Shown one piece after another: positions 1,980-63,299 of a stretch of 64,000 nucleotides of DNA. Origin of the DNA: Halieaceae bacterium (lineage in GTDB: Bacteria; Pseudomonadota; Gammaproteobacteria; Pseudomonadales; Halieaceae); the NCBI GenBank assembly GCA_963921335.3, contig CAWUFC020000002.1, forward strand, positions 882,120 to 946,119, in the 5' to 3' direction. The notes under the pieces are model-generated. The model saw nothing but the letters and a program-made list of their open reading frames with translations. It did not search any database and had not been told where the DNA came from. The stretch's first letter is position 1. Every line of letters begins with the position of its first letter. The position numbers were made by a program, and so were the translations under genes.

Positions 1980-4900
1980 CCCGAATGCACTGACATCAAT
2001 AAGCTCGTAGTCCGGCAGAAAATCCAGGATGGTGTCCTGGCCCCAACCGGGCGCAAACACAAAGGTATCGACACCCCGACCACCGGCGAGATAGTCAATG
2101 CCCGCTCCGCCAGCAAGAATATCGTTGCCAGACTCGCCAAATAGATGATCGCTGTAGAGGTTACCGGTAAGTGTGTCATTGCCGGCGCCGCCATAGAGTT
2201 CCGTCAGATCCAGCGCCGCACTGCTCAGGTTGTTATTGCCATCGTCTCCTAACCGGGGTTCTGCTATTTCTCCCAGATCCACCAGTATCTCGCCTGTCTC
2301 CAGGTCGGTTGATATCTCGACGCCATCGAATTGCAGGCTGCGGGACACGAAACCTGCCGAGCCTGGAATGGTGTAAAGACTGTCAATCTCCAAATCTTCC
2401 CAGTCGAGACGGCGATCGCCGTTACGGTCGCCAAGGTGGAAGGCGCTGAGGTCGATAATATCCTCGGCACCAAAGGTCCCAATTTCCAGGGAGGTCACGT
2501 CAGTTTCAATGCGAAAAATATCGACGCCTGGCCCGGCATCGGCACTCGCCTGATCCGCATCGATAAAGTGCACCCTGCCAGCAAACCCGCGATCAATATC
2601 AATGCCGTTCTGGCTGGGGGTTTCAAAATCTTCGAAAGATTCAAAGCTCAGATCGTATTGATCTTCAACCAGGGGAATATTGTGGCGAGTGATTTCAAGG
2701 CTACCCGTATACAGCGGTGGTGCATCGCTGGTGCCGGCAAAACCACCCAGGTCGGCTAGCGGGCCAAGCCAGGTGGTGTGCGTGTCGACAAATTCCATAT
2801 CGACCTGGGGCACGACATCCAGCCCCACATCAACATCCAGCACCGCCTCGGGCTGCACAATCACGTTATAGCCAATAACTCCGTCGCCATTGCTGTCGTG
2901 CTGGCTGGCGTTGGCTATCTGCACACCCACATCCGGATCGAAGGTATATTCGTGGCCGTCCTCCATGACCAGCACCGCGTCAAACGCGCCAAAATTCAGG
3001 CTGACGTCTTCCACTACGTCAAAGTCTGCACCGATGTCGTAGTCCATGAGCTCCAGATAGAACTGCACCTGGGCAATAAAGGGCAGACCGAGCGAGGTAG
3101 TGAACTCAAACGGGTTGATATCAGGCAGGCCAGGCGGCAGGCTGAGACCAACGGCTGCCAATCCGATTTTGGATACCAGGGCATCCATATCCAGCCCGAC
3201 ATAAGCGGCCTCTTCAATTAGCTTGCCACGGCGACCTGTGCTCTCTTCCAGGCGGGGCACATCAAAGCGGAAACCATCTGGCCAATCCAGATCAAACTCC
3301 AGAAATGACACATTCACTTCAGCGCCGTTATTGCCACGCAGGGCCTGAGTCAGGTCTGTGGCGTCGTAACTCTCGTCGCCGAGATCAATAGACAGGGGTA
3401 CACCATAGTAAACGATCGCCTCGGGCACGTCGGTGTTGTATTCAATTAGTGGGAACCGTCCGTCCTCATCAGCCCGACCGATTGCAGTCAGATCCGCACT
3501 GTCGAACTCCAGCGACTCACTGAATAATTCGACGGGCGTGTGGTACACATCCGGGCCAAAGTTATCCCAGCCGGCATCGAAACCCTGGTAATTCAGCGTT
3601 GCACTGGTGGAGAGATCCCAGTAACTGCCCAATCCAACCTGCAGATCTGGGAACTGGGTATCCACATAGCTACCCGTGTTAGTAATATCCAGCGCACCCA
3701 CTGACAGTCGGTCACTCACCGGGTTGTAGGAGACTTCTGCGTCGGACTGATATTGAAGGTGGGTCAGGATCTGGCCGCCAGTAAAATCCGCATAAACCGA
3801 CAGGGAGGTCTCCAGATCGATATGGCCTTCAGCATAAAAACGGTGCGCATTGGCCCAGCGATTGCCTTCAGCATCAAACTGCACAGCTGCACCGAGGTCG
3901 ATAAAGCCTGTGTCGAAGACCGTGCCGCTCTCATTGATATCAAGCAGATCAACAACCAGCTCATTCTCGGAGTTCAATAGGTCTATTGCAGCCTCCAGTG
4001 CGTGCTCAGCGAAATACTGGGTGCTGGAGAACTGCAGCCCGACGGATTCCGCGCTTGATCGCTCCACGCCACCGGCACGAATATTGGTGGCGATCACTTC
4101 CAGATCGAAGTCTTCCGAAGCACCCTCTGTAAACCGAACGGTGAACGTTTCGTCACCGCTAAAGTCCGTCACGCCATCATTCACAGACTGGCCACTGCTG
4201 TTAAGAATAGTCACGGAGTGAGGCAGATTGTTGAATGCCAGCGCAATGGAGTCGCTGGCATTATCCGTGTTGGCGGTAATGCGCAAGTCCAGCAATTCCA
4301 CGCTACCGCCATCCGATATAGCGAGACTCAGATCAGGCGCATCCAGGTCACCCACTATGGTGACGTCAATCAATTGCAGGTTACTGCCACCTGCCAGGTC
4401 ATCAAAATAAGCGGCATAGCGAATGGTTTCGGTTTCGTCCGGGCCCAGCCCGGCATAAGCAGTGAGATCAATAGATGCGGCCATATCGCCGGGCGTGACT
4501 GCAGGAGTTGAGCCATCGCTGGAAGATACCAAGTCGAGGCGATCCAACTGCAACAGCTCAGTCTCACCACGGTCTGGATCGATAATGGATCCCACCAGAC
4601 TAAAGTTAACCGGATCTGCACTGTAGCCAACCGCCACCTGGAAAGGCTCGGTTGCACCGGCGACATTGTTAACGCCGGTGATTTCGACCTCTGCGACCTG
4701 TTCCACCAGGCCACCAACACCGTCACTGATCTGGAAGTCGAAAGCCAGGTCCTGCACTTCGCCTTCGGGCAGGTAGGCAAAACCATTGCCCTCAATCACC
4801 AGCTCGGTGCCATCCAGATACCAGCCTTCGTTAATATCACTGCGCTCAGCCAGGCCGACCACCGACAAGGTGTCAGCGACATCCGCATCTGAAGCGCCCT

Positions 4901-6044
4901 GTAACAGATCAATCCGAATGTCGGTGCTGCTGTCATCAATAGCTTCAATGATTGGGCCAGTCACCACGGGCACATCGTTGGCACCGGGGATTTCGATGTC
5001 GACCTCGCGCTCTACACCGGCGCCCAGATCTACCAGCAGGGACAGGGTTTCACTTTCACCTGCAGAAATATGGGCAAACTCCTCTGGATCCACAGTGATG
5101 GTGTTAGCAGCGTCATCAAAACTCCAGCCCGCCACATAGACACCGTCGGAGGTTCTAGCGCCGACCGCATCGGGCGTAGAATCAATGTCGGTAACACCTT
5201 GCACCACATCGAGCACAAAGTTCGTGCCCAGGTCATCGACTGTGACTTCGATTGGGGCCGCTTCAGAGGGGTCGTCCACCCCAAATAAGCGAATAAAGCG
5301 CCAGCCATCAATGGTGCCACCGTTGCCATCGCCGGCAGTAAATCGCAGTTCGATGGTTTCGAACTCACCCGGCCCAATGCTATCCCACTGCGCCAGACCT
5401 GGATCAAAGGTAAGGGTACTACCGTCGACAGACCAACCACCGTGGCCACCCACATCGGTGATGTCACTGATTACCCGCAGCACATCGCTCTGGTCCGGGT
5501 CGACACCATTCTCCACCAGGTCAATGGTAATGGGGGCGTCACCCTCAGACACATCAGTGGAACCACCGGGAGCGCCGGTCGGCGCGTCATTTACACCCAC
5601 TATCACAAGGTTTGCGGTATGGCTCAGCGTAGCGTCGTACTGATCGGTGACATCGAAGCTCAGGGTCAGCGCTTCCTCTTCCCCTGCAGACAAATACTTA
5701 AACGTGCTGCGGGGCATTTCTATACCCTCAATACGGGTTAACCAGTCAGTAGTACTCACGGGATCAAAGCCCGAGATCACCTCACCAGTCCTGGTTACCG
5801 TGGCGACAATGTTCTCTATCGTGATGTCGGCATCATCATCGGGGTCGGTGATGAAGTTGGGTGTTATAGGTAAATAGGTAAACGCCGCACCCTCGTAAAC
5901 CCTGAAGCTCAGTGTTCCGGGCTGATTCAAATCGGGCGCGGAATTAGTGCCGGTGAATGTCACCGACGCAGTCTGCGGATAAGAGCCACCCCCCACCATC
6001 CCAGATGTTGTAGGAGAAGTTGTAGGTGACTTCTTCACCATCAT
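1848..6044 (-). CDS. giant RTX/cadherin-like repeat adhesin, C-terminal segment (T1SS substrate)
   Basis: 1398-aa ORF. It has ~100-aa repeat modules ending in GVNDAP/GANDVP. The C-terminal nonapeptide RTX repeats are GGAGNDTLTG..GESGNDILAGGAGIDYLAGGRGVDTFVF, followed by an acidic tail ending DADDFLFS. The true 5' end continues in another frame (see findings). Confidence 0.8.
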   Translation of the reverse strand: MMVKKSPTTSPTTSGMVGGGSYPQTASVTFTGTNSAPDLNQPGTLSFRVYEGAAFTYLPITPNFITDPDDDADITIENIVATVTRTGEVISGFDPVSTTDWLTRIEGIEMPRSTFKYLSAGEEEALTLSFDVTDQYDATLSHTANLVIVGVNDAPTGAPGGSTDVSEGDAPITIDLVENGVDPDQSDVLRVISDITDVGGHGGWSVDGSTLTFDPGLAQWDSIGPGEFETIELRFTAGDGNGGTIDGWRFIRLFGVDDPSEAAPIEVTVDDLGTNFVLDVVQGVTDIDSTPDAVGARTSDGVYVAGWSFDDAANTITVDPEEFAHISAGESETLSLLVDLGAGVEREVDIEIPGANDVPVVTGPIIEAIDDSSTDIRIDLLQGASDADVADTLSVVGLAERSDINEGWYLDGTELVIEGNGFAYLPEGEVQDLAFDFQISDGVGGLVEQVAEVEITGVNNVAGATEPFQVAVGYSADPVNFSLVGSIIDPDRGETELLQLDRLDLVSSSDGSTPAVTPGDMAASIDLTAYAGLGPDETETIRYAAYFDDLAGGSNLQLIDVTIVGDLDAPDLSLAISDGGSVELLDLRITANTDNASDSIALAFNNLPHSVTILNSSGQSVNDGVTDFSGDETFTVRFTEGASEDFDLEVIATNIRAGGVERSSAESVGLQFSSTQYFAEHALEAAIDLLNSENELVVDLLDINESGTVFDTGFIDLGAAVQFDAEGNRWANAHRFYAEGHIDLETSLSVYADFTGGQILTHLQYQSDAEVSYNPVSDRLSVGALDITNTGSYVDTQFPDLQVGLGSYWDLSTSATLNYQGFDAGWDNFGPDVYHTPVELFSESLEFDSADLTAIGRADEDGRFPLIEYNTDVPEAIVYYGVPLSIDLGDESYDATDLTQALRGNNGAEVNVSFLEFDLDWPDGFRFDVPRLEESTGRRGKLIEEAAYVGLDMDALVSKIGLAAVGLSLPPGLPDINPFEFTTSLGLPFIAQVQFYLELMDYDIGADFDVVEDVSLNFGAFDAVLVMEDGHEYTFDPDVGVQIANASQHDSNGDGVIGYNVIVQPEAVLDVDVGLDVVPQVDMEFVDTHTTWLGPLADLGGFAGTSDAPPLYTGSLEITRHNIPLVEDQYDLSFESFEDFETPSQNGIDIDRGFAGRVHFIDADQASADAGPGVDIFRIETDVTSLEIGTFGAEDIIDLSAFHLGDRNGDRRLDWEDLEIDSLYTIPGSAGFVSRSLQFDGVEISTDLETGEILVDLGEIAEPRLGDDGNNNLSSAALDLTELYGGAGNDTLTGNLYSDHLFGESGNDILAGGAGIDYLAGGRGVDTFVFAPGWGQDTILDFLPDYELIDVSAFGLSGFGELTLVDQDRGVVIDFGDDELFVVWRTASSLDADDFLFS

Positions 6045-7500
6045 TGAATGTGGCCTGAGTCGATGCCGGAATGGTCACGGTGTTGCCATCCAGCGTCCAG
6101 CCGGTCAGACCACCAGCCTCCGTCACACTTGAGGCTCTGATAAGAGCGCCGTCATCGACATCGGTGACACCCGCCACCAGATCGATTTCGAAGTCAGTGC
6201 CACTCTCGGTTTCAGCCAGCGTCTGGGGTACCGGAATCACCGGTGCAGTATTCACCCCATATACCTGCAAAAGCTTGGTGACGTTGATGCTGCTGCCCTG
6301 GGAGTCCTGAACCTGGTATTCAAACTGGTAGGTATCACGCACACCAAAGGGCATGGACGCTTTCGCTGCTAGATCAATCTCGATATCGGTACCGGACTGA
6401 ATCCAGTCAGTGAGACCGTTCGCTTCAGTGAGACCCACGATTTGCAACACTTCTCCCGTATCGGGATCCTCAATGCCTTCCAGCAGATCCAGGGAGTAGG
6501 TACCGCTGCCCTCCGCTACCTGTGGAAAGGGACCGGTGTAGCTCTGTTTGGGCACATCGTTCAGGCCATCTATGGTAACCACTGCAGTTAGCGGTGTATT
6601 GCCCCCAGCACCATCCATGGCAAAGTAGCTAAAGTTAAGCACCTGCTGTTGCCCGGCGATCAGTTGCTGCCAATAGTCAGCATCGATGAGCAGCTTATTG
6701 CCCGACAGGCTCCAACCATCATTCTGCGCGGCGTCTTCACCGAGACCGCCCACAGACAGGGTACCGCCTTCAGGATCTGACGAGTTCGCCAACAGGTCGA
6801 TTTCCACATCACTGTCGGGTTCGTCGATTGTCAGGTTGAGAGGCTCCCCCACCACCGGCTCGGAATTACTGCCCAGAATGTTGACGGTGGCTGTGCGACT
6901 AAGGCTGCCGCCCTGCCCATCTTCTACCTGATAACTGAAAGTCAGCACCTCGGTTTGACCGGAGGTCAGGGATGCGAATTGTGACAGGTACAATTCCAGG
7001 CTATTCCCCGACTGCCCGAAGCTAATATCGGGCTGACCACTACTGAGCGACAACCCTGTTACAGTGAGTGCATCACCTTCCGCGTCGTTGACACCACCGG
7101 TCAAATCGAGACTGTAAGTGGTGACATCTTCAAACCAGCTTTGCGTCAGGCCAGATCCGCCATCGGTCGGCGCGTCATTGACACCGGTCAGAGTCACCGC
7201 CAGGGTCTGGTCAACAGCAAGGCCAGAGCCATCCCTAATTTGATAGGTAAAACTCAGTAAATGTTGCTCAGCTTCCGCCAGATGCTGCCAGGCATCTGCT
7301 TCAATAACCAGCTCAGTGCCCTCAAGACGCCAGCCTGTAGTATCTCCAGCTTCCTCCAGGCCAATCACCGTTAAAGTGATACTCTCCGCGTCGTCAGCAC
7401 CTGCCAGCAAATCGATGCGATAGTCAGTATCGGATTCCGTCCAGGCATCTGCTAAAGGCGCTGTGACCGCCGGCGCAGTATTGTGGCCACCAATCCACAT
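5944..7500 (-). CDS. giant repeat adhesin, internal segment
   Basis: 518-aa ORF made of the same modules (..LTGVNDAPT.., ..ILGSNSEPVV.., ..IDGLNDVPK.., ..VYGVNTAPV..). It is in frame with ORF 7570..8409 across a TAG codon. Its last ~13 codons are out-of-frame read-on after the poly-G tract. Confidence 0.75.
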   Translation of the reverse strand: MWIGGHNTAPAVTAPLADAWTESDTDYRIDLLAGADDAESITLTVIGLEEAGDTTGWRLEGTELVIEADAWQHLAEAEQHLLSFTYQIRDGSGLAVDQTLAVTLTGVNDAPTDGGSGLTQSWFEDVTTYSLDLTGGVNDAEGDALTVTGLSLSSGQPDISFGQSGNSLELYLSQFASLTSGQTEVLTFSYQVEDGQGGSLSRTATVNILGSNSEPVVGEPLNLTIDEPDSDVEIDLLANSSDPEGGTLSVGGLGEDAAQNDGWSLSGNKLLIDADYWQQLIAGQQQVLNFSYFAMDGAGGNTPLTAVVTIDGLNDVPKQSYTGPFPQVAEGSGTYSLDLLEGIEDPDTGEVLQIVGLTEANGLTDWIQSGTDIEIDLAAKASMPFGVRDTYQFEYQVQDSQGSSINVTKLLQVYGVNTAPVIPVPQTLAETESGTDFEIDLVAGVTDVDDGALIRASSVTEAGGLTGWTLDGNTVTIPASTQATFNDGEEVTYNFSYNIWDGGGWLLSADCVGDIHRH

Positions 7501-7569
7501 GCCCAGCAGGAATGAGTTTACCCCACCGCGTCCGTCATCTACCGAAAAGCCAAACTGAAAAGTCTCGGA

Positions 7570-8409
7570 CTACCCCTCGACCATATAGGCGAGCGTCGAC
7601 ATATCCAGGGTGACTTCGCTGCCATCGAAGGTCCAACCGGTCTTGCCCGAGGTTTCATACACCCCGGATACCGTCAGCGGATCACCATTGCGATCAGTTA
7701 TGCCGTGAAGCAGATCGAGCACGGCGTCGCCATCGGCCTCGTCGTAGACCAGGTTACCGCTGCTAAAGCTTCTGTCAGGCAGATAGTTCTCGCCTTCCAC
7801 AGACAGATTGACTGCCAGGGTCAGAGCATCGCCGCGATCATCCACCACATTGAAGTGAATCAGGGAATCAGCGCTCTGGTTATAGCGCAGTGACTGGTAG
7901 CTGGGCAGGGTGGCATCAACAATGATGTAGGCGGGATTGAGGGGGTCCACCTGCCAGTTGGCATCACCACTGATCAGATTGGCGCTGGTCACGCTAAGGA
8001 TGCCGTTGGCATCGGGGTCGCTGACATAGTCCAGCGCATTAATGCGCTGAACACCGACTGCCGGCACTTCGATATTGATCGGATTTGCCGCCGCCTCTGG
8101 GCCGTCATTCACCCCGGTGATTGTGACAAAGGCTGTCTGGGGAGTGGGTCCACTGTAACCATCCCTAACCCCGTAACTGAATTCGAGGGTCTGGCTTTCC
8201 CCCTCGGATAGAAACTGCCAGGCCTCGCTGTCGAGCACAATCACATCATTGAGACCATCGCGATCGACGTGCCAGCCACCCGCGCCGGTATTTTCGATGA
8301 CCTCCCATTCCCTGATGTAGGGTGTTTGTCCGTCATCTACACCGCTGGAATAGGAAGCGACATCAACCACAATATCGCTATCGCTCTCCTGCACATCGAT
8401 ATACAGCAC
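7570..8409 (-). CDS. giant repeat adhesin, internal segment
   Basis: 279-aa ORF with the same module pattern (FSYGVRDGYSGPTPQTAFVTITGVNDGPE). The frame stays open and repeat-like upstream to ~8484. It ends at an in-frame TAG. Confidence 0.75.
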   Translation of the reverse strand: MLYIDVQESDSDIVVDVASYSSGVDDGQTPYIREWEVIENTGAGGWHVDRDGLNDVIVLDSEAWQFLSEGESQTLEFSYGVRDGYSGPTPQTAFVTITGVNDGPEAAANPINIEVPAVGVQRINALDYVSDPDANGILSVTSANLISGDANWQVDPLNPAYIIVDATLPSYQSLRYNQSADSLIHFNVVDDRGDALTLAVNLSVEGENYLPDRSFSSGNLVYDEADGDAVLDLLHGITDRNGDPLTVSGVYETSGKTGWTFDGSEVTLDMSTLAYMVEG

Positions 8410-8468
8410 TGGTTCTACGTCCGGCGGATCGTTTTCGCCATAAACACGCAGTGTGGCTTCACGATCCT

Positions 8469-11400
8469 CTACCCGGCCGTGGGGTCTGACACCTGGTAGG
8501 TGAAAACGTAATCCTGGCTGGTACCCGGCGCCATAAAAGCAAACTCGACGGGATCTACCAATAAGGAATTGCCTGTAATTGCAATACCAGCGTGACTGGG
8601 CCCGGTAACCGGTCCCACTGTCCAGGTATCGAGCCTGTCGTACTCGACGATATTTTTGGTCAGGTCGAATTCCTGGACCTCATCACCCCCGCGCACGGAA
8701 AAGAAGGGATCCGCCAGCACCACCGGGTCAGTGTCTTCGCCGACAACGGTAATGGTCAGCACACGGGGTGCACTGCCACCGTTTTTGTCGACCACATCGT
8801 AGACAAAGGTCAGGCTGGCTTCTTCGCCGAGGGAGAGTTTTTGAAAATCTGCCCAGGTCGATCCTTCAATCTCCAAATTATCGTTGTAACTTGGGTTCCG
8901 AAACCAACCGGTTGCTCCATATATCTCGCGCAGGTTTTCAATAGTGAATAAACTGACCTGATCCCAGTCCACATCGGTAACACCCTGGTCCAGTTCAATC
9001 GCGCTGAACGCTGAGGGCCGACTATCACTTTCCTGGAACACCAATTCGAGTGGCTCGGCTACCGGCAGGTCATTGACCCCATCAATAGTGAAATCCAGAA
9101 CTCGAAAAATGGAGTTAGGGCCTCCATCACTCACCTGATAGCTGAATACATAGCCCTCATCCCGTCCTGTATATAAAGGCTGCAACTCAGCCTGCGTAAG
9201 ATCGAGGGAGAACGTGGTGCCGTCAAAGCTCCAGTCGAGGTCTGCCGCCGCACCTGAGCCAGTGATATTAACGATTTCCAATACATCGTTAGCGTCGGCA
9301 TCTGTAGCCCCAATGGGAATGTCGTAGGTAAATACCCCGTCGTCTTCCACCAAATTGAAATAGGTGCGCTGATCTACCGTGCCGTCATCCACGGGATTGT
9401 CGTTGGTGCCTTCGATTCGAATAGTTGCTGTTTGTGGCACTGACAGGCCGTCGGTATCGGCGATGTCATAACTGAATTCCAGCGTGATGGAATCGCCATC
9501 ATCCAGTGCAGCATAATCGCGGGAATCCACAATTAGATCGCGGCCAGTCAGCTGCCAGCGGGTTTCCCCGTTCGCCTCGGTCAAATTGAGAATGGTCAGG
9601 TTGCCGTAATCTTCTGGATCACGAGCCCCATCGAGAAAATTGTTGGCACGACTAAAGAAATTACCCGACAGGGTGATATCAATCGGGTCACCTACATCCG
9701 GCGGCGAATTTATCCCTTCGATGATGACAGGCACTGTACCGCCACCGATTGCACCCCCAGCGTCGGTGTAGCTGAAACCGAACCTCAACTCTGTCTCGCT
9801 TCCACCACGTTGATTGGCGAAATAATCAGTGTTGATCGTCAGGACATCCCCATCAAGAGAATATGAGGAAGTGTGAAAAGTGGGGCCACCAAAATAAGCC
9901 TGAGTCAGTGAGGCATCGTCTCCGTCGGGATCGCTGATCAGTGTTTTCAGGTCGATGACAATATCACCCTGGGATTCCTGATAACGCTGCGGAGTGGAAT
10001 CTACCACTGGAGCAGTATTCACACCAATAATAGTGACAACAGCACTATGAGGAACCTGCGCTCCATTGTCATCGGCTACCCAATAGCTGAATTCAAGCTC
10101 CAGCGTCTCGCCTTCTGTGAGCGAGGTATAGTGGTTTGTGTCTACTCGAACGTAATCCCCGTCTATCTCCCAGCCCCCATGACCATTGGCCTCCTCAAGA
10201 CCAATAACCGACAAGGTGTCGCCGTCGGCTTCAGTGACATTGCCCAGCAGATAGTAAGGGAGGCCACCGGAACCTTCGTTCATGGTTCTACTGAGTGGGC
10301 CACTGACTACCGGCGGATTATTGGTTCCACCTACTGTTAGGGAAGCGGTCTGATCAACACTACCTCCAACACCGTCCTTAACCTGATAGCTGAAATTCAG
10401 TACCTGGTTTTCACCTGCAAGTAGCTCCGAATAAGCGTTCGCATCCAGTACCAACTGATTGCCCAGTAACTGCCAGCCATCCAAACCAGAATCTTCAACC
10501 AGACCCGCCACCTGCAGCACCGCGCCATCATCTACATCGGCAGCGCCCTGCAGCAGGTCGAAGGATTGTTCATCGGCACTGACTGGAGACTGGAATGTCA
10601 GCACTTCGTTCACAGTAGGAGGACTATTGGTACCGGCAATGGTGACGACTGCAGTTTGCTCTACTGATGCTCCCGAAGGGTCGCGGACAACATAAGTAAA
10701 TTGCAATTGTTCAGTCTCACCCGCCGGCAGATGGGCAAACTGGCTGGTGTCGACCTGGATATTCGGTAGCGCCGGGGTCCAACCGGATTTGTTGTTGATC
10801 TCTGCCAATTCGCTGACGGACAAAACATCGCCATCTGCATCACTCGCTCCGGCAAGCAAATCGACAAGGACCAGGCCCTGCCCGTCATCTGTCGCACGCG
10901 AAACAGCCGCGTCGACAACGGGTGGATTGTTTGAACCATCCACGGTCAGTGTTGCGGTTTGATCGACCGACCCGCCGAAATCGTCCTCAATGCGATAAGA
11001 AAAATTCAGTTGCTGGGTTTGACCTGCCAACAAACTGGAAAAGGCGTTGGCATCTAGCTGAAGCTGGTTGCCAACCAGTTGCCAACCGCCCAATCCTCCG
11101 GTCTCGGCAATGCTGACAACCTGCAATATGCTGTTGTCATCTACATCGCTGGCACCGGCCAGCAGGTCAAACTGTTGGGCAACACTGCTGACTGGCGCAG
11201 ACAAATTCAAAGCGGCGCTAACTGTCGGTGCGCTATTGGTACCGGTAATAGTCACCAACAGGGTCTGGGGAACTACACCGCCCTCGCCATCTGAAACCTG
11301 ATAGTTGAATGCAAGCTCAATGGTTTCACCCGCAGTAAGACTGGCGAAATCGGTTCCGACAATCTGCAATGTGTTGCCATCCTGAACCCACCCGGTCTTC

Positions 11401-13199
11401 CCGGTGGCTTCGATCAATCCAGCAACTGCTAGCTGATCGCCATCGGCGTCGCTGGCAGTCTCCAATAAATCGATCGACACCAAACCCTGATCATCGCTGA
11501 GTGCAGCATTAAGCGCAGCGGCCACTTCAGGCACCTGGTTAGGCGGTATTACGACAACCGGCGGAGCCGGCGCCGGCGCGGGCGCCGGAGTGGGTTCAGG
11601 CTCGGGAGCTGTGGGTTCCGGCTCCGGCTCAGGGGCCGGCGGCGGTTGTACAATATCGCCAACTTCATCAGCCGCATCTTCCACCCGCTGCTGCAGTTCG
11701 CCTTCTTCAACCGCTGCCAGTAGATCGCTGATATCTCCGGTGCTGGCAGCATTTTCCAATTGCTCTTCAAGCTGTTCGCTGACCACCTGAACCGCCGCAA
11801 TATCGATCAGGCCACCTGCCCCACCGGCACTGGCATCAATTTCAGCGACCGCCTGATTCAGCTCTGTAATTGCCTCGGCAGCTCCCGAGGCCAGATCGCG
11901 CACTGCCGCCTGTGCTGACTCATCAACGACCTCGACTGCGGTTAATACGACTTGTTCAATTGTGGCTGTGTTGGACAGATCCAACACGACTCCAGGTTCA
12001 TCAGCGCTATTTGCGATAGCACTACTAAGAGCGTCGTATACCACCTCCGCAGAGGCACTTTCGCTCACTCCGTCTTCGCTACCTGCGAGCAAGGCTGCAG
12101 TCTGGCTGACCAGGGTATTCACCTGCACCGCGGCTTTTTGAACTTCCAGCGCCTGCTCGACATCAGCGGCGGAATTATTCGGGTCACTCGCTGCAGCAAT
12201 CGGGTCTAAATTGAGCAGATCCACTTCAGCATCAATACCAAGTGCAGAATTGACCTGCTGCACGGCAGCCTCAGCGGACACTTCGCCACTCCGAGTGAGG
12301 TTTTCAACCAGGGTTGTCAGTGGGTTCACCACTGTCGCACCGGCGGGTGCGGTCATGCGACCTTCAAAAGCCTGACCTGTGGCGATATCGGTACCGCCAA
12401 ACATCACCAGGGAGCCGAAGTCGGCGTTGTCACCAAAATCGAAGTTTCCGGCACTGTCCGTGGTAACACTGACCTCATTCGGGTCCAGAACACCGTCGCC
12501 ATCGGTGTCGATAAACACAGTGGCGCCGCTGATATAACCGTCTACCACGACTCCATCAACGCTAAGGCCAGGCACATCGACACCACTGTAGGCATCACTG
12601 GCTAACAACTGGGTGATGAGCGCAATGGGGTCGGTGGCCAGGGCTTGTGCCAGATCGCCAATGCTCGGTACCTGCTCCACCAGGCCGTGATACTGCAGTA
12701 CCACCTTGATTTGCTCTGCCTTCTCGGCGGTGAATTCTTCTGAATAGGCGAATCCCAGCAACAGCTTGGCCCGCTCCATGCCCGCTTCGAGCTGCCCCAG
12801 CAAGTAGGCGGTACCGGCTTCATCGGGCTCTCGCTTGAGCACGTTTTGATATACCTGCTGCAGAAACGCACCGTCTTCGGCGGCAGCAAACAGCGATTGG
12901 AATTCTTCTGAATCAGCAAAAGCCGCGGCAATGCTCTCTACTGAACGCCCTGCCTGGTGCTGTTCAACCCAGAAACGCAACCCATCAGCATCGGGAATAC
13001 GATCAAAAGCGGCAAAGTACAGGCGTGCGATGGGCGCTACACGGGCGGCAAACTCAGGGCTATCAAGGAATTCAGAAGTAATATCAGCGGCGTTTCGCCG
13101 ACCGCTGGCCAGTTCTTCGACCCAGAATGCGACGCCTTCGCCCTCAGCCTGCCTGCCCAGCAGACGCTGGTATAACTGCTCTATGAACTCTTTGGACAC
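8469..13199 (-). CDS. giant repeat adhesin, N-terminal segment (DUF4214 repeats, Pro/Ala/Glu linker, >10 tandem ~100-aa modules)
   Basis: 1576-aa ORF. The N-terminus has two DUF4214-like units (LYQRLLGRQAEGEGVAFWVEEL.., QNVLKREPDEAGTAYLLGQL). The linker is PPPAPEPEPEPTAPEPEPTPAPAPAPAPP. Then come repeated modules of the form ..DLLxGAxDxDGD.L.V..L.E...GW...G..L.....F..L.AGE...L.F.Y.V.D..G....QT..VTI.GTN..P. Confidence 0.8.
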   Translation of the reverse strand: MSKEFIEQLYQRLLGRQAEGEGVAFWVEELASGRRNAADITSEFLDSPEFAARVAPIARLYFAAFDRIPDADGLRFWVEQHQAGRSVESIAAAFADSEEFQSLFAAAEDGAFLQQVYQNVLKREPDEAGTAYLLGQLEAGMERAKLLLGFAYSEEFTAEKAEQIKVVLQYHGLVEQVPSIGDLAQALATDPIALITQLLASDAYSGVDVPGLSVDGVVVDGYISGATVFIDTDGDGVLDPNEVSVTTDSAGNFDFGDNADFGSLVMFGGTDIATGQAFEGRMTAPAGATVVNPLTTLVENLTRSGEVSAEAAVQQVNSALGIDAEVDLLNLDPIAAASDPNNSAADVEQALEVQKAAVQVNTLVSQTAALLAGSEDGVSESASAEVVYDALSSAIANSADEPGVVLDLSNTATIEQVVLTAVEVVDESAQAAVRDLASGAAEAITELNQAVAEIDASAGGAGGLIDIAAVQVVSEQLEEQLENAASTGDISDLLAAVEEGELQQRVEDAADEVGDIVQPPPAPEPEPEPTAPEPEPTPAPAPAPAPPVVVIPPNQVPEVAAALNAALSDDQGLVSIDLLETASDADGDQLAVAGLIEATGKTGWVQDGNTLQIVGTDFASLTAGETIELAFNYQVSDGEGGVVPQTLLVTITGTNSAPTVSAALNLSAPVSSVAQQFDLLAGASDVDDNSILQVVSIAETGGLGGWQLVGNQLQLDANAFSSLLAGQTQQLNFSYRIEDDFGGSVDQTATLTVDGSNNPPVVDAAVSRATDDGQGLVLVDLLAGASDADGDVLSVSELAEINNKSGWTPALPNIQVDTSQFAHLPAGETEQLQFTYVVRDPSGASVEQTAVVTIAGTNSPPTVNEVLTFQSPVSADEQSFDLLQGAADVDDGAVLQVAGLVEDSGLDGWQLLGNQLVLDANAYSELLAGENQVLNFSYQVKDGVGGSVDQTASLTVGGTNNPPVVSGPLSRTMNEGSGGLPYYLLGNVTEADGDTLSVIGLEEANGHGGWEIDGDYVRVDTNHYTSLTEGETLELEFSYWVADDNGAQVPHSAVVTIIGVNTAPVVDSTPQRYQESQGDIVIDLKTLISDPDGDDASLTQAYFGGPTFHTSSYSLDGDVLTINTDYFANQRGGSETELRFGFSYTDAGGAIGGGTVPVIIEGINSPPDVGDPIDITLSGNFFSRANNFLDGARDPEDYGNLTILNLTEANGETRWQLTGRDLIVDSRDYAALDDGDSITLEFSYDIADTDGLSVPQTATIRIEGTNDNPVDDGTVDQRTYFNLVEDDGVFTYDIPIGATDADANDVLEIVNITGSGAAADLDWSFDGTTFSLDLTQAELQPLYTGRDEGYVFSYQVSDGGPNSIFRVLDFTIDGVNDLPVAEPLELVFQESDSRPSAFSAIELDQGVTDVDWDQVSLFTIENLREIYGATGWFRNPSYNDNLEIEGSTWADFQKLSLGEEASLTFVYDVVDKNGGSAPRVLTITVVGEDTDPVVLADPFFSVRGGDEVQEFDLTKNIVEYDRLDTWTVGPVTGPSHAGIAITGNSLLVDPVEFAFMAPGTSQDYVFTYQVSDPTAG

Positions 13200-24475: not shown

Positions 24476-27400
24476 CTACAGCACATAATTGTCAGCATCA
24501 GTCTGATTGAGTACAACACCAACCAATGTCACTACGGGCATCAGGTTATCACCACCACCATCTGTATCGACGCTGATCACGGTGCCACTTGAGTTGCTAT
24601 CAAATTCCAACCACCCCATCGAGAAGACCGTGTTGTCGCGCGGCGCACCAATTGATTCAAGTAGCTGCGAAAAATCCAGAATATCACCACTAGCGCTAAA
24701 TCCAGTGATCGTCTGATGCTCTACAACCACGACATTATCAAGCGCAGGGCCGCTAGCTCCAGCAGGCGCCAGACTTTCAAACTGCAACGGAGTAACACCA
24801 TGATTTGCGGTAAACGTAAACATATGCTGCGCCCACTTCATATCAGACAGGCTGACCGTGTCACTAAAATCAAAACGCTGAATGCTACTACCCGCCGAAG
24901 CTTCCACTGTCGCGGTTAAAGCTGCAATACCGCTGTACTCGTTTTTAGACAGGTTAAAGCTCACGTGATAATTGCTGCCGGCTTCGGTATCTAGCAATTG
25001 GACAATCCTGCCCGGCTCATTGCCGTTCATATCCAGGGACTGGTTGCCTTCAGCAGCCTGCCAAAATGTACCGATCACCTCGATACTGCCCTCTCGAATA
25101 TCCCATCCCGGCAAGCCGCTGGGAGGCACTCCCGGAGCAGCGGCGGTCAAAACCGCGCCATCAACGTAGGCGCCGAGGCTACCAAAGCCTCCTGGGAAGC
25201 TGTGGAACACTATGATCTCTGGCGCAAGAATATTGACATCACTACCGAGTGTTGTCGTAACCGAGACTGTCTCCCAGGTATTCGGGTCAGTATCAAGAAT
25301 AATCTTGTCACTAGAAATGCGCTCGCCAGGGGCATTGAGCGCACTGCGCATTTCGATATCGACAGATACCTCTACCCCGGCCTGCACCGTGTTCATTTTG
25401 ACTTCAAAAGTGACTTCAGTACCAGCCACAAAGGGGCCCTCAAGCATCTGGTGCACCTGCGAATTGGATCCGCCACCGGCGTGATTGACCTGGAGCATTT
25501 GGTTACCGAAGGGGACGATACCGTTGACGGCACCAGCCACGGTCGCACTTTCACCACCCCAGATATTGGTGCCAGGAGCCCAATAAACGTCGATCCCTGT
25601 TGTTGACTCAAAATCACCCTGGGCCAAAAGGTTTGGGTAGACCGGTGCCGCAAGCGTTTGCCAGCCACTTCCCACCACCGGATTTTCAAAGGAGCCATTG
25701 GTGGCCAGGTTTTCAATGACAAATGTGTTGCCCGCAGGTACACCGGTAATAGTTACGGGCAAAGACAACTGCGCCGACTTTGCCCCACCAGTGCCGTTAT
25801 TACCCTGGTCACTCACGCTCACCGTGAGGGTATCACTCCCCGAGTAGCCTGCAGTCGGGACATAACTGAGTCCGGCTACAAACGCGTCGTTGATCGCCGC
25901 TTGCGAACCTGAGTACGCCAGCGTGCCATCGCTACCCTCGCCATCAATCGCGACCAGTCCAGAGACATTACTCAAGGTCAGCGAACCACTTGAGGCTGAC
26001 AAGGTAATCGCTAACGGATCATTGCTGGCATCTGTGTCAGAGACACTGATCTGAGTCACTGTCAGACCAGTATCCTGCTCTGTCTGCAAGTTGACGTTGC
26101 CTCCAAATCCAATAACAGGGGCCTGGTTCGGTGGCGTTTCGTCGACATCGGTCACAGTAATCTGAATATCCTGCTCCACTCTGGCACCGCTACTGTCTTG
26201 CGCAGCGATTCTAAGCTGATAATTATTGTCAGCACCCGAATCGCCTGGTGCTTCAAAATTAGGTGCTGCGGCAAATCGAAGCTCACCGCTATTGCTTCCC
26301 AAACTGAACAACGCCGCGTCACTCCCGCCGACAATCGAATAGGAGATAGCGTCGCCGTCAGCATCAGTGGCCTGGACTGTCGCAGCTAGCGTCTGGTTCT
26401 CCGCGGCGAAAAAGGCAGCCGCAGTAGTAATTTCCGGGGCAATGTTCTCGTCGACGTCAACCACGGCGATACGAACCGCCAGGCTACTCTCAGCACTCTT
26501 GGTGTCCGTTGCACTAACTAACACGTCGTAGACATTGTCTCCATCAGCGTCTGCCGGCGACTCAAAATCCGGAGCCGATATAAAAGTCAGCACTCCGGTG
26601 TCAGAATCAATACTGAATAGACCCTGATCATCGCCGCTCAAACTATAAGTGATCGAGTCTCCGTCTGAATCGCTGGCGCTAACAGCGCCTACTGCGATCT
26701 GATTCTCGTTGACCTGAAATTCACCAGCGCCATCAAACTCCGGTGCAGCATTTACTTCAGTCACAGCCACAATGTAATCAGCCGCGCTGACACCACCGTA
26801 CGGATAACTGGCAGTGATGCGCAATTCATAGACATTGTCACCATCACTGTCCGATGGATTATCGTAGCTTGGAGCCTGATTAAAGCTAATTTGTCCACTA
26901 ATGGGATCAACACTGAGCTCATCACTGTCGTCACCACCGACAACCGCATAACGAATAACGTGACCCTGTTCGTCACTCGCTGCAACCGCACCAACCTGCA
27001 ATACACCTTCAGACACCGAAAGGTCACCGACGGGCAGTAACACGGGCGCTGTGTTGAGCTGATCATCAACATATACCGCAACCGACTCGAATGCTTTGAT
27101 TTGCAGGTCAAGGATACTGAAGACAAACACGTCTTCATCGGCAACACCGGTAACCTCGTCGGTTTGCTGATCTACGAACTTGATAAGCGCACCAAGGTCT
27201 TGAGTGAAAGCAGGATCAGCAGAAGCACCGTCCAGGTAAACAGACAGCGTGTCGGTACCCGCATCACCAGAAATCCGACCCTCGGTTTGAGCAAGAATGC
27301 TGACACTGTCATTACCTTCCCCACCCAAGATCGTGCTGAAACCAGCACTTACCAGGATACGATCATCACCACCATAGCCCAGTAAGCGATTTCCATTGCC

Positions 27401-29341
27401 ATCGCCAATAAGCTCATCAGCAAAAGCACTGCCCCAAACACCTTCGATGCTTGTCAACATATCGAGATCTCCGCCGGCGTTGATTTGTTGCGCACCAGTG
27501 ATCTGCAGGTTTACATTGACGCCAGAAGACTCAGACAGATAACTAACGGTATCCAGTCCGTCACCACCATTGAAGGTGTCGCTACCCGCCTGACCGTCAA
27601 AAACATCATCTCCTGCACCCCCATTAAGAATGTTGGAACCGGACGTACCCCACAACCGATCGTCATGATTGGAACCCTGAATGTTCTCGAACCCGATGAG
27701 CGTGTCGACACCCGCCAGGCCAGCGTTCTGCGGACCGTCGACATACAATCGCGCACTGATGCCCTGGGGCACATCCGAATAATCTACTGTATCGACCCCC
27801 CCACCGCCGTCTAAAACATCATTACCTGGGCCACCACGAACAGTATCATCGCCACTGCCAGCACTTATGGTGTCATTGCCTGAGGAGCCCGACAGGTAGT
27901 TAGATGCAGAACTGCCTACAATTGAATCGGCGGACTTAGATCCAACCGCATTTTCGATACTCCCCAGACTGTCAGAGATATCATCAAAGTCATCCGCTGT
28001 CGGAGAACGGACAGCAGTACCACCACCGAGGTCGATCTCTACCGGTATGCTGTCTTGACTGTAGTCGACCGTATCAGAGCCATCGCCCCCCCGGATATTG
28101 CCCTGGCCAAAGCCCGACGGCTGAAACACATCATCGCCATGCTCACCGAAAAAGTCACCAAACCCTTCGATAATAAATCGATCGTCGTGATTACCACCAT
28201 GAGCGACATCAAACGCACCTCGCGACACCAGCAGGTCATTGCCATCCTCACCTGCCAGAAGGCCCCTGCCAAGGCTGACAATAACGTCATCTCCACTGCC
28301 GCCCCAAAGATCTGCATCCTTCCCGAGCAAATAGTCGTTGCCGGCACCACCATCCATCCAGTCTTCACCACTACCACTGTTGAGCGAATCGTTGCCATCA
28401 CCTCCGTAAACGGTATCGTTTCCGCTACCAGCCATTATGGTATCGTCGCCAGCTCTGCCGTCCAGATAGTCACCCTGGCCACGCCCATCAAGAAAGTTGT
28501 TCGCGGCGCTGCCAACCAGCCGATCGCCATTGAAGCTAAATCTATCCGTGGCATCACTACCAATGATATTTTCGACATCTATTAATACGTCGAAACCAGC
28601 ACCTTCTCTTGTTCTTCCTGTTGACTGACTGAGATCCACGCGGACAGCCAGCGTGGTGGCAGAGTAATCCACCGTATCGCTACCGGCTCCTCCTTCGATA
28701 GTGTCATTGGCCCGGTAACTCGTGTCACCGGGGTAGAAAACATCATCACCAGCTTCGCCAATCAGGCGGTCGGCGCCGCGCCCGCCATAGACGGTATCAT
28801 CCCCCGCGCGCGCAGCCACGATGTCATTTCCGTAGCTAGCGATAATGACGTTATTGCCATCATCCCCCCATAAGCGGTCATTGAAGTCGGAACCATGAAG
28901 GTTTTCGATACCAACAAAAGTATCCACGCCAGCACTACGAGTATCCTGTGCGCCTGTGATCTCAAGGCTGGCATAAACGCCGCCACTGGCGTTTTGATAC
29001 GTTACAAAGTCGGCGCCAGAACCGCCATCCAGACGGTCATTACCTGCACCACCATCGAGAGTGTCGTGGCTGTCACCGCCGCTAAGAGTGTCATTGCCTT
29101 CTTGACCGAACAAGCGATCTCGTCCGTCATCGCCGTTCAGCTCATCATTACCTAAGCCACCATAAAGAATGTCATTACCACCTCGAGCGGCAATACGATC
29201 ATCACCCTCACTGCCTTCGATAAGATTGGTGTTGTCATCACCCCAAAGTCGATCGTTATGATTTGATCCCAGCAGGTTTTCAATGGAGTCGTAACGATCA
29301 AGGCCAGCACCGTTCGTCTCGGTATTCACTGTCCAGGACAA
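24476..29341 (-). CDS. giant RTX protein 2, C-terminal segment (RTX blocks, 3 cadherin-like repeats, CBM/DUF642-like modules, T1SS C-terminal target domain)
   Basis: 1621-aa ORF with dozens of GGxGxDxL nonapeptides. The cadherin-like units have the form ..NxAPE...SASD.DGD.I.YS..G.D..LFS.D..TG.L.F...PDFE.P.D.DGDN.Y... A [22 protein letters not shown] segment looks DUF642-like. The C-terminal [10 protein letters not shown]...[18 protein letters not shown] resembles the VC_A0849-type T1SS target domain. Confidence 0.8.
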   Translation of the reverse strand: [1621 protein letters not shown]

Positions 29342-59289: not shown

Positions 59290-59889
59290 ATGCCCAAAGT
59301 CGTAAATCACGAGACACGCCGGCGTGAGATTACCGAGGTCGCTATCGACATCATTGCCCGCGGGGGCATGGAAGCTGCCACGATCAGGGAAATTGCCAGC
59401 GCCTGTGGTTACTCCAAAGGCGTGGTCGAGCACTATTTTGACAACAAGGAAGCGATTATCAGCGCCGCGCTGGCACTGTTAAACGGCAACTACAACGCTC
59501 GCGCCGAACGATGCATTGACGGGCTGCGCGGAATCTCGGCAATTCAGCAGCGGCTACAAGCCACTCTGCCCCTGTCAGAGGAGCAGAAAAAGGAATGGCG
59601 GGTACGACTGATTTTCTGGTCAATGGCCGCCGTCGATGCCGAGCTCAAGAAACAGCAAGCCAAACGTCTCAAAATGGCTGCTCAGCAATTCGCACAACAC
59701 TTTAAAGAAGCAGTACAGGACGGCGAACTACCTGCCGGCACGGATACGGACAATGCAGGTCGACGCCTGGTCGCCACAACCACAGGCCTTTCGATAGCCG
59801 CCCTGCACAATCAACAGCTGGGCCAGCGTAAATTCTTGCTGGCCGAAATCGATCACTTAATAGACGCCCTGCCTGGGCGCAGGCAGTAA
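59290..59889 (+). CDS. TetR/AcrR family transcriptional regulator
   Basis: RRREITEVAIDIIARGGMEAATIREIASACGYSKGVVEHYFDNKEAII. Confidence 0.9.
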   Translation: MPKVVNHETRRREITEVAIDIIARGGMEAATIREIASACGYSKGVVEHYFDNKEAIISAALALLNGNYNARAERCIDGLRGISAIQQRLQATLPLSEEQKKEWRVRLIFWSMAAVDAELKKQQAKRLKMAAQQFAQHFKEAVQDGELPAGTDTDNAGRRLVATTTGLSIAALHNQQLGQRKFLLAEIDHLIDALPGRRQ

Positions 59890-61543: not shown

Positions 61544-61927
61544 CTAATCAGACGCTGGCTTCGGCATCCGCGTTGACCACCAGATACAGGCTAACAGCAG
61601 CAGCTGAATCACCAGGCGAATGCTGAGAAAGGCTTCGGGCACATCGGGAAACAAATCCGGGTTGAGCCACATATGGATGTTAGCGGGTGTGACGGCAACC
61701 GTCAGTGCGATCAGACAGTTGCCCGCCAGCTGACGGGTTGCAGGCAGCAAAATGCCAATGGCCCCCAGAATTTCCAGCCCCCCGCTTATATAGACAAGCT
61801 CCAGGTGCCAGCCGATATAGGGAGGCATGATATTGATGTAGAAGTCTGGATCGGTGAAGTGAGTAATGCCCCCTACTATGAACCAGATAAACACAATGGC
61901 CAGCCCCAGGTACTGCCATCTAAACAT
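61544..61927 (-). CDS. DoxX-like family membrane protein
   Basis: 127-aa ORF with four hydrophobic helices. GGLEILGAIGILLP..NIHM resembles DoxX-like proteins. Confidence 0.65.
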   Translation of the reverse strand: MFRWQYLGLAIVFIWFIVGGITHFTDPDFYINIMPPYIGWHLELVYISGGLEILGAIGILLPATRQLAGNCLIALTVAVTPANIHMWLNPDLFPDVPEAFLSIRLVIQLLLLACIWWSTRMPKPASD

Positions 61928-62052
61928 GTCGCCCTCCCCGGTCGATCTTGTTCGTCACATTGCACACCGCAACAAAAGCTGCAAAATCAAACGCTTAGCT
62001 AGTTTTTATTTCCGCACAGCATAAAGGACAAGTCGTTGATTCCAAATAGATT

Positions 62053-62111
62053 TTAGAAATTTCGCATCCCACAGTATTTACACATTTTATCCACAGCCTT
62101 ATGCCTATACA
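62053..62111 (+). promoter_or_regulatory. candidate promoter with GacA/LetA/UvrY-like box upstream of the GGA-rich RNA
   Basis: TTAGAAATTTCGCA (62053-62066) differs at one position from the Legionella LetA consensus TNAGAAATTTCTNA as I recall it. TTTACA (62077-62082)-17 nt-TATGCC (62100-62105) follows, then TATACA. Confidence 0.35.
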
Positions 62112-62555
62112 GGGCTCAGCGATTCTGAGATTCTAAATCCATGGCCACGGAGCTTCGGTTCCGAAAGAGCCAAACCCCGATTGGCCGGGGATGGGATCAC
62201 AGCCAATAGTGATCAACGGGCAGGGAAAGCTGCCGTGCTGAAGGACCCGCGAGGGGACGGAGGCAGCCAGGAAAGCCTTCGGGCAGGAATGGTGAGGAAG
62301 TGGGAACTGCGCGAACTCGTGACAGCGATACGCGAACGCTAAAGCGGGTGGACGTTGCCAAGCGTCACAAAATATAGGGAATCTCGATTCCCGGGCCGGT
62401 AGAAGCAGAGTTTGAGGTGCGCTTGCGCAGCGAGGACGAAGCGGAGACCGAGTCAAGGCGGAAAGCGGAGCCGACGGGTCAAACCAAGGGCGATGTGGGA
62501 AGCCGACTGAACCAGGGGGATGACGTCTTCGGATTTCATCCCCCGTTTAGTTTTT
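62112..62555 (+). ncRNA. candidate ~440-nt GGA-rich structured sRNA (CsrB/RsmB-like CsrA-titrating RNA?)
   Basis: There are 20 GGA on the plus strand between 62149 and 62555, against 3 TCC. Many are in A/C-R-GGA contexts (ACGGAG, CAGGGAAA, AAGGAC, CAGGAAA, CAGGAAU, GAGGAAG). The hairpin 62219-62234, GGCAG-GGAAAG-CUGCC, displays GGA in its loop. Three hairpins are UUCG-capped. There is no credible ORF, and the region ends in an intrinsic terminator. The 5' end is estimated from the promoter guess. Confidence 0.5.
62515..62555 (+). terminator. Rho-independent terminator
   Basis: A 9-bp stem GGGGGAUGA/UCAUCCCCC (62515-62523 / 62536-62544) has an inner UUCG-capped extension and is followed by GUUUAGUUUUU. 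Confidence 0.8.
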
Positions 62556-62654
62556 ACCCCTCCCAAAAAAGCCATTACCACAATCTCACTTGCCACTCGC
62601 GGCATTTATTGACAGACTTTATGTCAATAAATCGAGCAGCTAGGAGATAATTCC

Positions 62655-63299
62655 ATGATCAAGTTGTACGGCGTTCACGGCTCGCCATTTGTTCGCAAAG
62701 TCTTTGTCGCACTGGACATTAAAGGTATCGAGTTTGAGGTGGTTCCAACCATGCCATTCTCCGGCGACCAGGAATACCGAAAGATTAACCCACTGGGCAA
62801 GGTACCCACCATCCAGGATGGCGACCTTACCCTTGGCGATTCCAAAGTGATCTGCCACTACCTGGAGGACGCCTACCCCGAGCCGGCTCTCTACCCCAAA
62901 GAAAGCAAGCAGCGTGCCATGGCCAACTGGTATGAAGACCTTTGCGGTGGCGATGTGGCGGCAATGGCCGCGGGCATTTTCTTCCAGCGCTTTATGCGTC
63001 CCTTCGCGTTTAACCAGGAACCGGACGAAGAGCTGGTATCAAAGATCACCGACAAGCAGTTACCTCCAATGCTCGACTACCTGGATAGTCAGTCACCGGA
63101 AGACGGGTTTGTATTTGGCGAATTCCAGATGGCCGACCTGGCCATGATCAGCCCGTTTATTAACGCAGCATACGCGGGTTATGAAGTAGACGCTGAGCGC
63201 TGGCCGAAATTCGCTGGCCTGATCGCGCGAGTCAAACAACAGGAACCTGTCGCCAAAGTGCTGGCGCAGGAGGCTGAAGCATTGGGTTTTAACAAGTAG
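62655..63299 (+). CDS. glutathione S-transferase
   Basis: MIKLYGVHGSPFVRKV..INPLGKVPTIQDGD..L.DSKVICHYLED is a GST N-terminal thioredoxin-like domain. AGGAG lies upstream. Confidence 0.9.
   Translation: MIKLYGVHGSPFVRKVFVALDIKGIEFEVVPTMPFSGDQEYRKINPLGKVPTIQDGDLTLGDSKVICHYLEDAYPEPALYPKESKQRAMANWYEDLCGGDVAAMAAGIFFQRFMRPFAFNQEPDEELVSKITDKQLPPMLDYLDSQSPEDGFVFGEFQMADLAMISPFINAAYAGYEVDAERWPKFAGLIARVKQQEPVAKVLAQEAEALGFNK

Follow-up and report, generated by a model that had tools for sequence, protein, structure and literature searches.

Does the 727-bp gap at 61928-62654 of this Halieaceae contig hold a gene and, if so, of what kind? The window, by which we mean the whole stretch of 64,000 nucleotides analysed here (assembly GCA_963921335.3, contig CAWUFC020000002.1, positions 882,120 to 946,119), has at this point a divergent intergenic region between a DoxX-like gene and a glutathione S-transferase (GST) gene, and the stretch 62053-62555 within it shows the highest GGA density and the highest purine content of the 64 kb (purines 63-66%). 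An earlier note on this DNA had proposed here an unannotated plus-strand RNA gene that ends in a terminator and that it could place in no family, and had read its GGA triplets as fitting a sponge for the regulator CsrA. Our analysis supports the RNA gene and speaks against the sponge. The gap very probably contains a genuine structured RNA gene. We favour, with appreciably less assurance, an explanation in which this gene stands alone and encodes a structured RNA of about 420-460 nt that belongs to no Rfam 15 family and acts in trans as a folded binder of a protein or ligand.

The comparative evidence comes from two relatives, both reached through a spurious protein. The probe was a 107-aa open reading frame (ORF) on the minus strand of the gap (62133-62456), with which 1.84 billion representative proteins were searched exhaustively by phmmer. 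Two proteins matched, P0121 (E = 1e-25) and P0122 (E = 5e-4). They are annotated as hypothetical proteins (164 and 139 aa) on the antisense strand of two metagenome contigs barely longer than the RNA gene, namely L029 (753 nt, the contig of P0121) and L030 (643 nt, that of P0122), from the ENA metagenome assemblies ERZ27263990 and ERZ27264496. These spurious antisense proteins are the sole handle on relatives of the RNA; a first word-index protein search with the 107-aa ORF gave no match, and a later profile search returned the same two proteins only. The family has three members so far, apparently all from Halieaceae-like marine gammaproteobacteria.

The wider searches added no member. Twenty-three metagenome contigs with a relative of DoxX (L006-L028) carry no gap-like sequence upstream of it and share no gene context with the window; DoxX directly follows same-strand genes there. 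No match was obtained by blastn of the window and of L030 against plasmids and phages, by metagenome and viral scans that used patterns back-translated from the spurious ORF, by tblastx of the gap against all loci, or by looking up P0001 and the window proteins for exact identity. A profile of the three sequences turned up no further copy, either in the window or among the loci that had been fetched. When viral sequences were scanned with the invariant GGGAACTGNGCGAACTCGT, two matches inside coding DNA appeared, which were rejected as chance. The literature search returned no paper on noncoding RNAs of Halieaceae. Homologues of the GST assign the organism to that group (Halieaceae, Cellvibrionales). 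Because the closest non-self GST is just 79% identical (in a word-indexed collection of 5.8 billion proteins), the genome appears to be one without a close sequenced relative.

Aligned with the two contigs, the locus divides into these parts:

62036-62099, plus strand: conserved upstream block, presumably with promoter or regulatory DNA for the RNA gene
62066-62096, plus strand: three CACA(G) repeats at 11-bp phasing, with cores at 62070, 62081 and 62092
62100-62140, plus strand: spacer, variable in sequence and constant in length
62141-62514, plus strand: RNA body, purine-rich (G 36%, A 26%, U 14%)
62515-62555, plus strand: intrinsic terminator, a hairpin of 9 + 3 bp followed by GUUUAGUUUUU

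Identity to L029 is 50% over 62000-62035 and 77% over 62036-62099, and at the 3' end of that block (62083-62099) it is 88% to each of L029 and L030. It drops to 59% (L029) and 35% (L030) in the spacer, recovers to 80% and 69% in the RNA body, and stands at 68% in the terminator of L029 (62515-62555) and 73% in that of L030 (62515-62547). Past 62555 the L029 sequence is unrelated (46% identity), and the similarity stops right at the terminator end. The invariant upstream box and the RNA body are 72-74 nt apart in each of the three sequences, with variable sequence in between. By these alignments, the body, the terminator and the upstream block are conserved together as one unit, and the flanks are unrelated where they can be read, which is in L029. 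The earlier note had allowed that its RNA gene would fall if relatives showed no conservation; the body is conserved in both. Just upstream of the conserved block, L029 carries the end of a co-directional ORF and a terminator-like hairpin, and beyond the RNA its sequence resembles a convergent ORF at its 3' end; both flanks speak for the RNA as a transcription unit of its own. The gene upstream is divergent in the window, and the terminator is therefore not part of the DoxX unit.

The conserved body folds, and its pairs covary. For the plus strand of the three sequences, RNAalifold gave a consensus of 110 pairs in 22 helices (-134.3 kcal/mol, covariation term -5.4), in which 94.5% of cells form standard pairs. 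Double-sided changes occur in 22 pairs, compared with 10.0 +/- 2.2 in shuffles (0 of 500 reach 22) and with 1-4 pairs in a control in which the partner column was slid; covariation in relatives, whose absence the earlier note had named as a ground for refuting its RNA, is thus present. The minus-strand consensus is 25 kcal/mol weaker (-109.3 kcal/mol, covariation term +0.1), and G.U cells number 31 versus 3 A.C cells. The consensus energies, this G.U/A.C asymmetry and the terminator together point to the plus strand as the folded one. Within the body the parts are as follows:

62155-62162 with 62499-62506, plus strand: long-range closing helix H2, predicted to enclose most of the body
62195-62214, plus strand: hairpin H5 (GAUCAC/GUGAUC), all cells pair
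62213-62235, plus strand: invariant UCAACGGGCAGGGAA and a local hairpin GGCAG-GGAAAG-CUGCC, the same in all three sequences
62246-62293, plus strand: hairpins H10 (CCC-GCGA-GGG), H11 and H12 (GCC-UUCG-GGC), all cells pair
62303-62372, plus strand: most conserved core, with GGGAACUGCGCGAACUCGU, helices H13-H15 and the invariant AGCGUCACAAAA
62377-62454, plus strand: hairpin H16 (GGGAAU/AUUCCC), the invariant CCCGGGCCGGUA and the domain H17-H19
62470-62491, plus strand: hairpin H21, with a variable stem and a conserved UCAAA-type loop

Several of these hairpins change sequence while keeping their pairs. H5 reads GGCCAC/GUGGUC in L030, with one compensatory change from U-A to C-G and one wobble; H10 becomes CGC-GAAA-GCG in L030; H11 runs through GCCA/UGGU, GCCG/UGGC and ACCG/CGGU, and H12 through GCC/GGC, GCU/AGC and CCC/GGG across the three sequences. 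H14 shows the series A-U, G-U, G-C, H16 is GGGGGU/AACCCC in L030, H17 is paired in 100%, and H21 has double-sided changes in 4 of its 6 pairs. The hairpin at 62219-62235 holds the one canonical site with CAGGGA in the loop, and folding of the single sequence leaves this GGA unpaired (p = 0.99); in the consensus fold the same bases are instead paired over long range as H6 and H7, and no covariation favours one pairing over the other. H2 is the least certain helix: 3 of its 8 pairs show double-sided changes, 79% of its cells pair, and it competes with a local UUCG hairpin at 62147-62164. The long invariant blocks of the RNA are UCAACGGGCAGGGAA, GCGAACUCGU, AGCGUCACAAAA and CCCGGGCCGGUA, with invariant positions 62311-62320 and 62361-62372 inside the core. 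The RNA has no conserved repeated loop motif, and a tandem-repeat search found nothing.

The local features that had been picked out in the single sequence fared unevenly in this comparison. The GATCAC/GTGATC stem recurs as H5 with covariation support, the UUCG-capped hairpin at 62275-62284 is confirmed and covaries, and a GGA does sit in a hairpin loop, that at 62219-62235. The proposed stems GTGAC/GTCAC (62319/62364) and GGCCA/TGGCC are both lost in the homologues, where the direct repeat GCGGAG(A)CCGA is likewise not conserved as a repeat.

The terminator at 62515-62555, also first proposed from the single sequence, is well founded. Its hairpin has about -27 kcal/mol in the window (z = -5.9); the energies are -27.2 (window), -28.3 (L029) and -36 kcal/mol (L030), with z values from -4 to -5.9. 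A compensatory change from A-U to G-C preserves the stem, and the loop is UUCG, GAAA or GGAA, that is, swaps among stable tetraloops.

Coding constraint is not seen in the same alignment. The gap was said at the outset to lack a plausible ORF, and we found no credible one, the six-frame translation of 61928-62654 giving no match in Pfam. Within the 107-aa ORF, substitutions over the three codon positions number 17/21/17 relative to L029 and 26/42/28 relative to L030, without periodicity. The indels relative to the window are of 7, 1, 1 and 2 nt in L029, and L030 has ten of 1-7 nt, just one of them a multiple of 3. The protein similarity of the antisense ORF is lost precisely between compensating frameshifts. 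A plus-strand ORF at 62141 has 22 codons in the window and 99 in L029 and is absent in L030. Neither relative shows a conserved coding frame, which had been offered as a ground for discarding the RNA; flat codon positions and frame-breaking indels therefore rule out a protein. The substitutions themselves show a sequence that evolves by compensatory base-pair changes and not by codon rules.

The block upstream of the RNA may serve control of its transcription by a DNA-binding factor. The outer two CACA(G) repeats are kept in all three sequences, and the middle one is degenerate in L030. The third core lies within the invariant (C)A(T/G)TTTATCCACA(G/C)C at 62083-62097, and the TTATCCACA that it contains (62087-62095), invariant in all three sequences, occurs nowhere else in the 64 kb; it is a perfect match to the consensus DnaA-box 9-mer. 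Sites in the same orientation at 11-bp phasing are typical of DnaA-box arrays and of sites for OmpR/PhoB-type response regulators, and the factor that binds the CACA repeats may accordingly be DnaA or a regulator of that type. As a separate observation, the minus strand of the repeats reads CTGTGGA-N4-ATGTGTA-N4-CTGTGGG and, after 12 nt, TAAAAT (62055-62050), a layout like that of a Pho-box promoter directed towards DoxX.

Comparison with Rfam 15 placed the RNA in no family. At gathering score the whole 64-kb window gave no match, and at E <= 10 nothing consistent was found over the three sequences. A weak match to the c-di-GMP-I-GGC riboswitch (GEMM-I, RF03167) at 62160-62238 reached 20.5 bits, whereas the gathering threshold is 59 (E = 0.033 in a search of 801 nt). 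Two hairpins and a GCCAAACC motif of the candidate lie within the match; it is absent in L029 and L030, covers less than 20% of the conserved RNA, and was taken as chance.

Taken as a mechanism, the proposal is that transcription would start in or just after the spacer 62100-62140 (probably within it or at its 3' edge), under the control of a factor recognising the 11-bp-phased CACA repeats, including the DnaA-box 9-mer, and would end at the terminator 62515-62555. The RNA would then act in trans, its invariant loops and junctions serving as the sites where a protein or ligand binds. Long invariant stretches among covarying stems are typical of RNAs that bind proteins or ligands or make tertiary contacts, and atypical of Hfq-type base-pairing small RNAs and of repeat-motif sponges. 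It is because of this conservation pattern, of a U-poor composition ill-suited to Hfq-type pairing and of the lack of repeated motifs that a trans-acting folded binder is suggested.

Several points weigh against this proposal. We infer the binding of a protein or ligand in trans from the conservation pattern alone. The L029 and L030 contigs (753 and 643 nt) are too short for gene context, so that a cis-regulatory role is compatible with them. None of the three sequences shows a sigma-70 consensus promoter, and the L029 terminator hairpin has no good U tract. Several helices are weak (H1, H2 and H19). The consensus structure was derived from the same three sequences on which covariation was counted, and the covariation statistics are therefore suggestive and not proof. 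The stability of the single sequence is moderately unusual in the folding model and on its own a modest signal: the plus strand has z = -2.6 (-2.25 on repetition) and the minus strand z = -0.7 to -1.2, while random 456-nt windows average z = -0.55 +/- 1.0, with 2 of 24 at or below -2.1 and 1 of 24 reaching -2.6. One control window, 28420-28875 on the minus strand, folds at z = -4.1, more strongly than the candidate; it lies within a 1621-aa ORF (24476-29341, minus strand), whose repetitive coding sequence may account for the fold.

The alternative that survives best, unlikely as it is, makes the element a cis-acting leader of the GST gene, a riboswitch or protein-dependent attenuator that decides whether the terminator forms. 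The genes on either side are these:

61544-61927, minus strand: DoxX-like gene, with its start codon at 61927, facing the gap
62655-63299, plus strand: GST gene, 100 nt beyond the terminator

The terminator lies on the GST strand, 100 nt before the start codon; H2 closes the body 8 nt before the terminator, like the P1 helix of many riboswitches, and the invariant internal loops would suit a ligand pocket. Yet the element is absent upstream of GST orthologues in four genomes (L001-L004; 59-76% identical), with which there is no common gene order, and in L029 the downstream flank is unrelated and has the look of a convergent ORF's end, not of a gene start. No conserved antiterminator was found; the sole candidate, 62187-62198 with the 3' arm, fails to covary with the terminator change in L029, and a body of at least 370 nt is far above typical aptamer size. 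Between the terminator and GST lies an operator-like palindrome at 62604-62632, which suggests that GST has a regulated promoter of its own. This palindrome is a perfect 11-bp inverted repeat, ATTTATTGACA-N7-TGTCAATAAAT, and either strand of it carries TTGACA; since L029 does not conserve it, it is part of the GST gene and not of the RNA. A TetR-family gene (59290-59889) lies 2.7 kb upstream of it.

The CsrB/RsmB-type sponge of the earlier note, in which the GGA motifs would sequester CsrA/RsmA and expression would depend on a GacA/UvrY/LetA-type activator, is a doubtful candidate and one that we now give little weight. It has points in its favour: the 20 GGA in about 430 nt (a count that we confirm for 62053-62555) are the top density of the 64 kb, the invariant hairpin with CAGGGA in its loop has a context shared with CsrB, four GGA outside the terminator are invariant, and the candidate is a stand-alone, terminator-ended, G+A-rich gammaproteobacterial RNA near CsrB in size, the terminator being a feature that a sponge RNA should have. 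Escherichia coli CsrB (369 nt), analysed identically as a positive control, sets the scale for these resemblances. It has 22 GGA with 12.1 expected (z = 3.5), whereas the candidate has 20 with 13.4 expected (z = 2.4), or 15.4 expected from dinucleotide shuffles (p = 0.09). For 62053-62555 the number to be expected from local composition is 13.3 +/- 3 (p about 0.03) and not the roughly 7 assumed before, and TCC occurs 6 times in that stretch, not 3. The GGA excess of the candidate is mostly purine richness.

Context, exposure and conservation of the GGA all separate the candidate from CsrB. In CsrB 21 of 22 GGA are in the form A(N)GGA (z = 4.7); in the candidate 10 of 20 are, with 6.8 expected (z = 1.2), and in the homologues 7 (L029, 6.8 expected) and 6 (L030, 7.5 expected), so that the enrichment in CsrA-type contexts that had been claimed is not there. 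The probability of being unpaired is 0.80 for GGA versus 0.44 for all bases in CsrB, and 0.52 versus 0.43 in the candidate; 9 of 22 GGA lie in hairpin loops in CsrB and 3 of 20 in the candidate. All three sequences keep five of the 20 GGA unchanged, including one that lies in the terminator stem; this rate does not exceed that of columns in general (59% of body columns are invariant), and the homologues contain 17 (L029, 13.2 expected) and 14 GGA (L030, 15.1 expected, hence no excess). What is conserved instead are long non-GGA stretches and covarying helices, the opposite of Csr/Rsm RNAs.

Nor is the proposed activator box conserved. The near-palindromic box that had been likened to GacA/LetA/UvrY sites, TTAGAAATTTCGCA, is TTAAGATTTTCGAA in L029 and CTGAGATTTTGCTC in L030, so that neither its sequence nor its palindrome is kept. 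In favour of the sponge, it agrees with the LetA box of Legionella, TNAGAAATTTCTNA, at 11/12 specified positions; the literature search did not turn up that consensus. The GacA box has the consensus TGTAAGN6CTTACA (PMC8523701, PMC4353343), and its best alignment, at 62051-62068, agrees at 7/12 positions. The Rfam comparison that the earlier note had recommended gave no match to the CsrB, CsrC, Rsm or TwoAYGGAY models at E <= 10 in 61900-62700, L029 and L030; the sponge families thus drop out, while the suspicion that the RNA belongs to no known family is upheld. No csrA was found in the 64-kb window, a statement about the window and not about the genome.

A further alternative, which we judge very unlikely, places the function in the DNA itself, as a locus bound by DnaA or another regulator or as the relic of a mobile element with an incidental fold; in a variant of it, the transcript comes from the minus strand. 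The invariant DnaA-box 9-mer and the phased repeats upstream agree with this, as do the hairpin and T-run on the minus strand at H16 in all three sequences and the fact that both metagenome contigs end near the element, as assemblies do at repeats. But compensatory changes keep pairing over 370 nt, which DNA-binding sites do not need, and the strand asymmetries in consensus energy and in G.U versus A.C cells speak against a minus-strand transcript. Terminal inverted repeats and a second copy (in the window and the fetched loci) are both lacking. At 62000 and 62548 there is a 9-bp direct repeat, TAGTTTTTA, no more than expected by chance; a miniature inverted-repeat transposable element or insertion flanked by it was rejected on that count and for want of inverted ends. 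The antisense element at H16 consists of a hairpin followed by the T-rich run CUAUAUUUUGU (62392-62366 on the minus strand of the window, 261-286 in L029, 203-225 in L030) and is flagged as terminator-like in all three sequences; it may mirror the plus-strand ACAAAAUAUAG-hairpin or end an antisense transcript.

A decayed or unrecognised protein gene, be it the 107-aa minus-strand ORF or a small plus-strand one, is effectively refuted: metagenome gene callers did call the equivalent minus-strand ORF in both relatives (P0121 and P0122, 62% and 48% identity), but beyond these two no homologue exists among the 1.84 billion representatives, and the substitutions, indels, frameshifts and Pfam result given above all run against it. 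The other 'large gaps' of the window were rejected as candidates, being ordinary genes. Elsewhere in the window, very large ORFs follow one another on the minus strand over 1848-13199 (1398, 518, 279 and 1576 aa); they are repetitive and acidic, with VNDAP-type repeats and, by eye, an RTX- or cadherin-like adhesin look, and about 100 nt are shared between the 518-aa ORF and the end of the 1398-aa ORF.

A stand-alone structured RNA, the explanation that we prefer, is of a general kind already known, that of terminator-ended, highly structured bacterial noncoding RNAs of undefined function, and the family itself matches none catalogued. OLE, GOLLD, ROOL, HEARO and raiA are orphan large structured bacterial noncoding RNAs. 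Like them, the candidate is large and multi-helix, with conserved internal loops and junctions and a narrow distribution, and it was likewise found by comparative analysis. It differs from them in having no match to their Rfam models, in its place in a Halieaceae-like gammaproteobacterium and not in Firmicutes or phage contexts, and in its three members, and it is smaller than GOLLD, ROOL and OLE (about 420 nt). CrcZ, the Hfq/Crc sponge RNA of Pseudomonas, is similar in size (about 400 nt) and is also a stand-alone gene with a terminator. It acts through repeated A-rich AANAANAA motifs, whereas the candidate has a single A-rich stretch (ACAAAAUAUAG), no repeated motif and no match to CrcZ in Rfam.

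These results carry two lessons for work on such loci. When an RNA is purine-rich, a high number of GGA is no evidence for a CsrA sponge until context, exposure and conservation of the motif have been compared with those in a true CsrB. Where gene callers place spurious ORFs inside RNA genes, these ORFs offer a way to RNA homologues through protein databases.

Structured bacterial RNAs longer than about 400 nt without a family are uncommon, and those that have been characterised, such as RNase P, tmRNA, the group I and II introns and recently OLE, ROOL and GOLLD, have unusual biochemistry. The boundaries of the present RNA are clear, its secondary structure can be tested and the element upstream of it is conserved, which makes it ready for experiment. 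It is conceivable, if something of a long shot, that it opens a new class of large ornate RNAs confined to Halieaceae-like marine gammaproteobacteria, a ribozyme, ligand sensor or scaffold of a ribonucleoprotein, gated by DnaA or a phased-repeat regulator through the TTATCCACA array. Should that gating prove true, these bacteria would have a structured RNA tied to their replication or cell-cycle state.

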